Virus genome (UHGV): UHGV-0092003
Strand: one strand, 5' to 3'
DNA length: 64,000 bases
DNA from: a virus
In this document: positions 22,206-23,366 of the stretch, piece after piece
Layout: every line of letters begins with the position of its first letter
How positions within the stretch are numbered: position 1 is the first letter of the stretch
Program-made: the position numbers and the translations under genes
The notes under the pieces: model-generated
Databases searched by the model: none
What the model saw: the letters and a program-made list of their open reading frames with translations, nothing else
Told to the model about the DNA's origin: nothing

Positions 22206-23366
22206 ATGAAGATTACTAAAATCATCTCAGAGAAGCCCGGACTCAGCGAATCAAAAGCAAAAGAGGTATGGGATGCTTTCGAGAAATTCGGGTCGTATGG
22301 CTTTAACAAATCACACGCAGTGGCCTATACCGCAATCAGCTACCAGGCAATGTATCTGAAGACTCACCATCCGGCTGCATTCTTCGCCGCCGCACTGACA
22401 ATTCAGGACGATGAAAAGCATCGTGCAGTTGTAAAGGATGCGCTGGCACGCGGCGTTATCGTGATGCCACCAGACATCAACCTCTCAACTGACCGCATCG
22501 AAATAGTCGAAATGAAGGATGGTCGGACGGCGTTATATGCCCCCTTCTCAGCTGTCAAAGGTTGTTCTGAAAAAGGCAGCTTAGCCATTATGCGTGCTCG
22601 CGAGCGTGTAGGTGGTAAGTTTGAGTCGCGAGCACAATTTAAGGAAGCGATAGAAGCCAGACTCTGCAATATCCGGGTTCAGGAGGCTCTGGAAGCCGTT
22701 GGCGCGTTTGCCAGTATTGAGCCTGGCAGCGAACCAGCGATGGCGGAATCCCGCCGCAAGGCTCAATCAGAGCTGATGGGAAGCCTCATTATCGATGCGG
22801 TAAAAGTGAGTCGCCCGTTCGAGATGAATCCGAAACGCCAGGCTGAAGTGTCAATGTTGATGGAAGAGCTGCGTAAAGAGGTCGGGGTGGGCGAAGATCT
22901 CGTTACCCCGCATATCGGCGTATCGCCAAAAATAATGATTATCCTCGACACAGCAAACGGCAACGATATCAGGACGGGGATCTTCATGGAGAACGGCTAC
23001 GAAGATTTTAAGGCGAAAATGCTCGTTAATGGCGATCTGCGCATGAGCGAGGTGTACGTTACCGGCGTCATTAAGCAGGATAAGAAGTTGCCACTGTCCC
23101 GCGACGCAGAGAACACCTACATCGAGTTTATGAAGAAAGAGCTTGAGCTGGTTAAACCAACCTACGTCCTGACGTGTGGTCGCCTGTCGGCCAGTCTCTT
23201 CAACGACAAAACCAAGGCAACGGATTTGGTCGGACGTAAGGAATACTTTGGCGCAATGGACTTGACCGTATTTTACGGATTCAATCCGGGTATACTTCAC
23301 TTCAGACCGGAAGAAGGCGAGAAACTGGAACTTATTATGGAAGACATTAAGGAGGCATTGTCATGA
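22206..23366 (+). CDS. dnaE: DnaE C-terminal fragment (fingers motif FGSYGFNKSHAVAYTAISYQAMYLKTHHPAAFFAA) fused to a family-4 UDG-like domain
   Basis: Continuation of DnaE after a 70-nt spacer, with its own RBS. The last ~180 aa align by pattern to family-4 uracil-DNA glycosylase (SPKIMIILD...VYVTGVIK...KPTYVLTCGRLSA...) but lack the GEAPG and Fe-S cysteine motifs. Confidence 0.75.
   Translation: MKITKIISEKPGLSESKAKEVWDAFEKFGSYGFNKSHAVAYTAISYQAMYLKTHHPAAFFAAALTIQDDEKHRAVVKDALARGVIVMPPDINLSTDRIEIVEMKDGRTALYAPFSAVKGCSEKGSLAIMRARERVGGKFESRAQFKEAIEARLCNIRVQEALEAVGAFASIEPGSEPAMAESRRKAQSELMGSLIIDAVKVSRPFEMNPKRQAEVSMLMEELRKEVGVGEDLVTPHIGVSPKIMIILDTANGNDIRTGIFMENGYEDFKAKMLVNGDLRMSEVYVTGVIKQDKKLPLSRDAENTYIEFMKKELELVKPTYVLTCGRLSASLFNDKTKATDLVGRKEYFGAMDLTVFYGFNPGILHFRPEEGEKLELIMEDIKEALS

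Follow-up and report, generated by a model that had tools for sequence, protein, structure and literature searches.

The DnaE-type DNA polymerase encoded in a 64,000-nucleotide stretch of the virus genome UHGV-0092003 (this whole stretch is called the window below) ends in a domain that is a true, well-folded homologue of the uracil-DNA glycosylases (UDGs) of family 4, and that lacks the uracil-reading Asn, the motif-B His and the cluster cysteines of these enzymes. Judged from this residue pattern the domain is most likely a non-excising accessory module of the replicase in which uracil excision has been lost, a reading that we consider probable and not certain. The polymerase is encoded by two adjacent genes, here called dnaE-N and dnaE-C, and the UDG-fold domain is formed by the C-terminal part of the dnaE-C product (Table 1). 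The element to which the window belongs is an SSU5-like phage-plasmid of Klebsiella. The DnaE-UDG architecture was already described in 2014 and is annotated, so the finding is not new at the level of sequence; what it contributes is the residue-level picture and the pointer to an experimentally accessible enzyme.

The resemblance was originally predicted from the letters alone, as a family-4 UDG pattern at 22830-23366, and all the elements of this pattern (GVSPKIMIIL, LDTANGND, VYVTGVIK, VLTCGRLSAS and GFNPGILHFRP) are indeed present in the plus-strand frame. With the single window protein as query the sequence support for kinship with UDGs was modest. TIGR00758 (UDG_fam4) was matched with E 1.5e-6 and 28 bits against a cut-off of 125.3 bits, Pfam PF03167 with E 0.003 and 18.1 bits against a gathering score of 24.3 bits, and phmmer against the PDB found the Thermus family-4 UDG 1ui0 with E 2.8e-4. 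The support became decisive once relatives were included. When 1.84 billion cluster representatives were searched exhaustively with phmmer, 108 clusters were obtained at E <= 1e-3; this search and a homologue search with the whole open reading frame (ORF) recovered the family, while a domain-only query in the word-indexed homologue search returned 4 proteins. A profile of the domain from 32 members matched Sulfolobus tokodaii 4zbx in the PDB with E 6e-22, followed by 1vk2, 1l9g and 1ui0 with E 1e-21 to 9e-20. PF03167 was matched individually by all 32 of the aligned members (best E 1.2e-14), and precomputed matches to PF03167 and PF14579 are found in many relatives.

The structural evidence points in the same direction. 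An AlphaFold2 (AF2) model of dnaE-C residues 189-386, based on a 67-sequence alignment, showed a UDG fold with a mean predicted local distance difference test score (pLDDT) of 92.7 and a predicted template-modelling score (pTM) of 0.90. Its top Foldseek neighbours in the PDB are the family-4 UDGs 4zbx, 1l9g and 1ui0, with E values from 3e-11 to 3e-10 and template-modelling (TM) scores of 0.72-0.76 over approximately 185 aligned columns; next come, in this order, UdgX, family 5 and MUG/TDG. In a viral structure library the neighbours were phage UDGs and PolA polymerases with a fused UDG, including the SP-15 polymerase. The UDG fold that the original prediction expected from profile and structure searches was thus returned by TIGR00758, phmmer, the family profile, PF03167 and Foldseek.

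The remainder of the two gene products is a DnaE polymerase. The dnaE-N product matches the Pfam families PHP, DNA_pol3_alpha (E 7.7e-73) and DNA_pol3_finger (E 7.9e-50) and is 67% identical to residues 1-777 of the DnaE protein of Salmonella phage SSU5, which is a single ORF of 1172 residues; the dnaE-C product is 62% identical to residues 784-1171 of the same protein. Residues 8-177 of dnaE-C align to residues 731-897 of the E. coli polymerase III alpha subunit (5fku/2hnh, E 1.3e-23 with phmmer against the PDB) and, in the same type of search, to Taq alpha (3e0d, E 5e-27), and Pfam HHH_6 is matched with E 1.3e-12. PHP, Pol3 core, fingers and (HhH)2 are therefore all present, spread across the two ORFs. 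The extent of dnaE-C, the second ORF of the original prediction, needed a small correction: the codon at 22203 encodes His, the start is the ATG at 22206 and the product has 386 residues. The open frame extends from 22146 to 23366, and the length agrees with protein P0005 and with the coding sequence (CDS) that PGAP assigned in CP027615.1.

The UDG-fold domain follows (HhH)2, at the position that the OB and tau-binding domains occupy in E. coli alpha, and a Pfam scan of the dnaE ORFs gave no match to OB (PF01336) or tau-binding (PF20914) domains. The proposal that a UDG module stands in place of these two domains is thus supported, and it agrees with the work of Timinskas, Balvociute, Timinskas and Venclovas (Nucleic Acids Research 2014, PMC3919608), who described a "DnaEX" variant that certain strains of Salmonella enterica and Yersinia pestis possess as an additional polymerase and in which the OB and C-terminal domains are replaced by an archaeal-type UDG domain (PF03167). 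The window polymerase shares with this DnaE the PHP-Pol3-(HhH)2 core and the C-terminal family-4 UDG domain, with 62-67% identity to the Salmonella SSU5 enzyme, and differs from it by the division of its gene into two cistrons. In the 2014 report the UDG domain is analyzed neither at the level of residues nor for its function. In the PGAP annotation the orthologous 386-residue CDS is named "uracil-DNA glycosylase" and the upstream CDS "DNA polymerase III subunit alpha".

Table 1 Positions of the polymerase genes, their domains and the UDG motif equivalents in the window.
Feature	Position	Strand	Remarks
dnaE-N	19763..22135	+	790 residues; PHP, polymerase core, most of fingers
Spacer between the dnaE halves	22136..22205	+	70 nt; second stop codon, 15-bp hairpin, AAGGG ribosome-binding site (RBS) before ATG
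dnaE-C	22206..23366	+	386 residues; end of fingers, (HhH)2, connector helix, UDG-fold domain
FNKSH part of fingers and (HhH)2 beta-binding domain	22227..22736	+	homologous to E. coli Pol III alpha 731-897
RRKAQSELMGSL	22752..22787	+	consensus R-x-[KR]-D-Q-x-E-L-[ML]-[PG]-G-[LI]; connector helix or candidate beta-clamp-binding motif
N-terminal strap packed on the UDG-fold domain	22788-22829	+
Family-4-type UDG-fold domain	22830..23363	+	last ~178 codons of dnaE-C; profile, PDB and structure matches
Motif-A equivalent IMIILDTANGND	22932..22967	+	compared with family-4 (V/F)GE(A/G)PG..E(D/E); alignments to 1ui0 and 4zbx
VYVTGVIK	23052..23075	+	aligned to family-4 VYITNVVKC
Motif-B equivalent GFNPGILHFRP	23277..23309	+	compared with family-4 (F/Y)HP(S/A)..L.NP

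Compared with the free-standing UDGs of Thermus thermophilus (1UI0), Thermotoga maritima (1L9G) and Sulfolobus tokodaii (4ZBX) and with UdgX, the domain has the same fold and the same order of secondary structures. The difference lies in the motifs, since the free-standing family-4 enzymes have GE(A/G)PG, TN, HP(S/A) and four Fe-S cysteines, whereas the window domain has LDTAN, TG and NPG and none of the cysteines. For quantification of these changes, residues were counted by alignment column in the window protein and the 69 clusters of at least 370 residues (n=70). In motif A, where the window has ILDTAN against VGE(A/G)PG, the family form is x-D-x-P-x and the acidic position alone is kept. 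This acid is Asp in 62 of the 70 sequences and Glu in 3, and in the window it is Asp248 (22947-22949), which is aligned with the motif-A Glu and is Asp in all 32 members of the domain alignment. The replacement of GEAPG by LDTANGND had been recognized correctly in the original prediction; the acidic residue of motif A itself is not lost. The Pro of motif A is Ala in the clade of the window.

The two remaining motifs are altered as well. The window has YVTGVIKQ where family-4 enzymes have (Y/F)ITN(V/I)VKC, so that the Asn that reads uracil is replaced by Gly and the cluster Cys of VKC is missing; in this column Asn is found in 0 of the 70 sequences, and Ala (20), Gly (17), Ser (17) and Thr (14) together account for 68. 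In motif B the window has FNPG against (F/Y)HPA, where His is replaced by Asn and the Pro is kept. The His column contains Asn in 42, Ser in 14, Thr in 11 and His in 1 of the sequences, and the Pro is present in 68. Such variation between Asn, Ser and Thr is not the behavior of a catalytic residue. The full canonical set of family-4 residues is not found in any of the 70 sequences.

The cysteines of the iron-sulfur cluster (CxxC.L, VKC and ..AC..) have no counterpart in the window either; as predicted from the sequence all four are absent, and the one Cys of the domain, in LTCGR, occupies a non-ligand position. This loss is limited to a part of the family, to which the enterobacterial clade of the window belongs. 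In 28 of the 69 clusters a CxxCxLxxxxH motif and a Cys after the third helix are found with perfect co-occurrence, while the VKC Cys is missing there, which suggests a putative Cys3-His metal site in these clusters. None of these metal-site residues are present in 36 of the 69 clusters, among them the clade of the window. This observation concerns the homologues P0031-P0078 and P0119-P0206; an example with the cysteines is P0054 (locus L004, 6001-7254).

The domain is not decaying. Its identity to SSU5-type proteins is 62-64%, compared to 67% for the polymerase core, and since it is conserved about as well as the core it is under selection. The full-length AF2 model of dnaE-C (pLDDT 89.8, pTM 0.77) furthermore suggests that the domain is held at a fixed position on (HhH)2 through an ordered connector helix.

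Loss of uracil excision is most likely because the Asn is lost family-wide, because the former His position is variable and because the metal site is gone in the clade of the window. The original prediction had named either base sensing or an inactive structural role for the module; sequence cannot decide between the two, and the residue pattern favors a non-excising module. In our working model the dnaE-N and dnaE-C products would assemble into one DnaE-type replicase, the UDG-fold domain would dock rigidly on (HhH)2 as a built-in accessory module, and its task at this position would be to handle DNA, whether template or product, or to serve as a dock for a partner protein. Such a role would parallel that proposed for the inactive UDG domain of the N4-like PolA and for poxvirus D4. 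The N4-like PolA (2023, PMC10201439) has a family-4 UDG domain whose catalytic residues are not conserved, and this domain was suggested to act as a processivity or structural module. The two polymerases have in common a family-4 UDG fold with replaced catalytic residues in a phage replicative polymerase, and they differ in that the N4-like enzyme is of family A with the UDG domain N-terminal, whereas the window enzyme is of family C with the domain C-terminal; the two are probably independent fusions. Vaccinia D4 has also served as the analogy for suggesting a processivity module in the PolA domains of SPO1 and T5. D4 is reported to be a processivity-factor subunit of the poxvirus polymerase in a role that is independent of catalysis (PMC1936997). 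A UDG fold is thus found within the replicase in both systems; D4 differs in being a separate and still active family-1-like enzyme, which joins a family-B polymerase through A20.

Several points weigh against an accessory module without excision. The residues that are invariant in the domain (D248, T286, G325 and P361 in dnaE-C numbering) are aligned with motif A, TN, LG and motif B, on the four loops that make up the UDG pocket, and with Asp248 kept and the pocket ring invariant a ligand or a flipped base could still be bound. MUG has a motif B of the NPS type, and other UDG families work without the motif-B His. The domain is net acidic, with an isoelectric point (pI) of 5.1 compared to a family median of 5.8 and to 8.8 for the 4zbx fragment. 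Finally, in the literature searched we found no biochemical data for any DnaE-UDG protein and no functional study, the architectural note from 2014 being all that was found. The acidic pI is a poor fit to a general DNA-clamping surface and points to protein docking or local DNA contacts; a role as general DNA clamp is weakened both by the pI and by the fact that the residues of the pocket ring are the most conserved ones.

The likeliest of the alternatives is a glycosylase that is still active and works by non-canonical chemistry, where Asp248 would activate the water as in family-1 GQDPY and the Asn-Pro of motif B would act as in MUG, and where uracil or another base would be excised from the template ahead of the polymerase, as by the UDG domain of SP15-like PolA. 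In its favor, Asp is kept in 62 of the 70 sequences, the invariant residues lie around the canonical pocket, the CxxCxLxxxxH-plus-Cys site is retained in approximately 40% of the family, and the ligase and the FEN encoded by the element could complete the repair. PolA-UDG fusions with an active domain do read deoxyuridine (dU) in advance of the fork: Missoury et al. (2025, bioRxiv 10.1101/2025.03.26.645540) reported that the canonical UDG fused to an SP15-like PolA excises template dU ahead of synthesis. As in the window polymerase the UDG domain is there physically coupled to the replicase, and the SP-15 polymerase is among the fold matches of our domain. However, the SPO1/SP15-like PolA proteins that excise dU keep motif A (LVGEAP) and the motif-B His, both of which are replaced in the window, and their phages carry modified thymidines, whereas the window element has ordinary ThyA and DHFR genes. 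Against activity also stand the absence of the uracil-recognizing Asn from all 70 sequences, the Asn/Ser/Thr variation in motif B, the loss of the motif-A Pro and of the metal site in the clade of the window, the acidic domain and the fact that no PolX was found in the window, and we regard an active enzyme as unlikely.

On the same evidence it is conceivable, and in our view about equally improbable, that the fused UDG fold is a retooled base-reading pocket and not a dead one. This idea derives from the invariant Asp, the small residue at the site of the uracil Asn, the Asn/Ser/Thr-Pro form of motif B and the Cys3-His metal site that replaces the Cys4 cluster in approximately 40% of the lineages. 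If true, it would mean that a C-family replicase detects or excises a template base ahead of synthesis, in parallel with the 2025 result on the SP15-like PolA.

More doubtful is a non-excising base sensor, which on binding uracil or a damaged base of the template would stall or slow the polymerase like the read-ahead pocket of archaeal family-B polymerases. In favor of it, the pocket-proximal residues are conserved without the catalytic His, and read-ahead uracil sensing has been reported for archaeal PolB and PolD. However, the Asn that gives specificity for uracil is missing, the models show no path for DNA and nothing places single-stranded template at the domain.

It could also be argued that dnaE-C encodes an independent HhH-UDG repair protein which is no longer a partner of the polymerase, and that dnaE-N is truncated and possibly dead. 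The two genes are separate, dnaE-C has its own RBS and its PGAP name is simply that of a glycosylase. This explanation is very unlikely, since dnaE-C starts inside the fingers domain and contains the FNKSH motif, the polymerase is one ORF in SSU5 and in 33 clusters, the halves are adjacent in all loci inspected, and the split is retained at 97-100% identity in 29 Klebsiella plasmids. A chance or compositional resemblance to UDGs, for which one could cite that the window protein alone falls under the curated Pfam and TIGRFAM cut-offs, is refuted by the Foldseek, family-profile and PF03167 matches given above and has practically no chance of being true.

UDG folds are attached to replicases of family A (SPO1, SP15 and N4-like), family B (poxvirus D4, in trans) and family C (the DnaE described here), and this repeated recruitment suggests a general advantage, in processivity or in the policing of uracil at the fork. 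Of the three, the C-family combination is the only one without experimental data. Since phage-plasmids of the SSU5 type are common among clinical Klebsiella, Salmonella and E. coli, it should be easy to obtain the enzyme, which is thereby also relevant to the replication of these elements.

As dnaE-C starts within the fingers domain and the polymerase is a single ORF in SSU5, the products of dnaE-N and dnaE-C must assemble as one polymerase. Among the 108 clusters (50% identity), 33 have at least 1000 residues and 26 are of split size, and dnaE-N and dnaE-C were found side by side in every locus inspected. In the window the dnaE-N product runs only approximately 12 residues past its homology to SSU5, the dnaE-C product starts directly in homologous sequence, and relatives with as little as approximately 33% identity have the same split point. 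At the corresponding junction of the fused SSU5 ORF (..GVKLPMAAV..) a Met is aligned with the dnaE-C start.

The simplest reading of the split is that it marks the insertion site of a homing endonuclease whose gene has since been lost here. In 4 of 6 other split loci inspected a gene for an HNH (NUMOD4+HNH_3) homing endonuclease lies exactly between the dnaE halves: in the SSU5-like locus L003 at 3284-3979, and in more distant loci at 5432-6004 (L004), 2962-3492 (L007) and 2923-3504 (L008). The context gggaaa(a)acacATGaa at the dnaE-C start is common to the window and to the endonuclease-bearing L003. In a further relative, L002, the endonuclease is fused into a truncated dnaE-C, one other split locus has three small unassigned ORFs in the gap, and in L006 the spacer is 73 nt long, without an endonuclease gene and with an inverted repeat of different sequence (3428-3500). 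The arrangement resembles that of phage genes split by free-standing homing endonucleases, with the difference that the relatives carry the HNH gene in the gap, whereas in the window there is no endonuclease gene in it, only the short spacer. The hairpin in this spacer is perfect over 15 bp (AAACAAGTTGTTTTT / GAAAACAACTTGTTT, arms 22150-22164 and 22173-22187) with a folding energy of -17.3 kcal/mol (z -2.6); no clear U-run follows it. An attenuator or a protein-binding site are conceivable roles, and the hairpin may also be a leftover.

Two other origins of the split were rejected. The split in the window is approximately 25 codons upstream of the FNKSH motif, and in this it resembles the split intein of cyanobacterial DnaE, which sits immediately before that motif. 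A split intein was rejected because neither ORF gave a match to Hint/intein families and because dnaE-C starts directly in homologous sequence. A sequencing frameshift is contradicted by the tandem stop codons, by the spacer with its RBS and by the same arrangement in 29 Klebsiella plasmids and many independent assemblies. With neither an intein nor an endonuclease gene in the window, the halves can associate only non-covalently. Three variants (P0020, P0026 and P0027; L002 6001-7176) have internal deletions or fusions that remove parts of dnaE-C: in P0020 the (HhH)2-UDG part is preceded by a fragment of PHP, in P0026 dnaE-C breaks off where the UDG fold begins and continues into the gp32-like gene, and in P0027 the UDG-fold part is fused to an HNH endonuclease. 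These may be defective elements or assembly chimeras, and as each is from a single contig they cannot be used to argue that the UDG-fold domain is dispensable.

Between (HhH)2 and the UDG fold lies the most conserved stretch of the C-terminal half, RRKAQSELMGSL, in which Gln is found in 58, Glu in 59 and Leu in 61 of 66 sequences at the respective columns. It is located shortly 3' of (HhH)2, like the internal clamp motif 920-QADMF-924 of E. coli alpha, and forms an ordered helix (H181-194) in the full-length dnaE-C model, whereas it is disordered in the domain-only model. From its position and conservation we consider it a candidate motif for binding of the host clamp. The window ORFs that were scanned included neither a sliding clamp nor a clamp loader.

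A 1.6-kb stretch around the UDG-fold domain is 100% identical to the K. pneumoniae plasmid NZ_CP103584.1, and its identity to a further 24 Klebsiella plasmids, with sizes of 108-116 kb, is at least 97%; SSU5 is approximately 73% identical to the window at the DNA level in the dnaE core. Synteny with SSU5 around dnaE includes the CobT/CobS-like, gp32-like, FEN and RecA genes. The replisome genes in the window encode a DnaB-like helicase, a DnaG-like primase, an ATP-dependent ligase, a gp32-like single-stranded DNA-binding protein and a FEN-type 5'-3' exonuclease, and further replication and recombination genes encode RecA, Mre11/Rad50-like proteins, an RNase_T/DnaQ-like exonuclease and a Rep3 initiator. 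Nucleotide metabolism is represented by ribonucleotide reductase, a MazG-like pyrophosphatase, ThyA and DHFR.

Directly 5' of dnaE, at 16225-19585, lie CobT-like (VWA) and CobS-like (AAA_5) genes, which are also found in SSU5 and in every related locus seen. In relatives they are labelled "porphyrin biosynthesis proteins". On the other side, a gene for a 140-residue protein of the Pfam family DUF7740 (23363-23785) overlaps the dnaE-C stop codon in an ATGA, which suggests that the two genes may be translationally coupled, and its product may be a partner of the polymerase. The DUF7740 gene is found 3' of dnaE-C in L002, L003 and L006 too.

The RecA gene of the window (26776-27843) has no intein, while RecA inteins (Intein_splicing, LAGLIDADG or PT-HINT) are present in relatives (L002 12339-13176 and L004 10517-12046), and in L004 dnaE-N itself is split further, with a faint Hint match. 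It appears that selfish elements have a hot spot in the replication module. Elsewhere in the window, a Tad2-like (Thoeris anti-defence) domain was found in a 181-residue ORF at 10715-11260 (Pfam E 4.5e-26), and the thymidylate synthase ORF at 45845-46936 is long (363 residues) and matches its Pfam family in two stretches, which suggests that it may carry an insertion.

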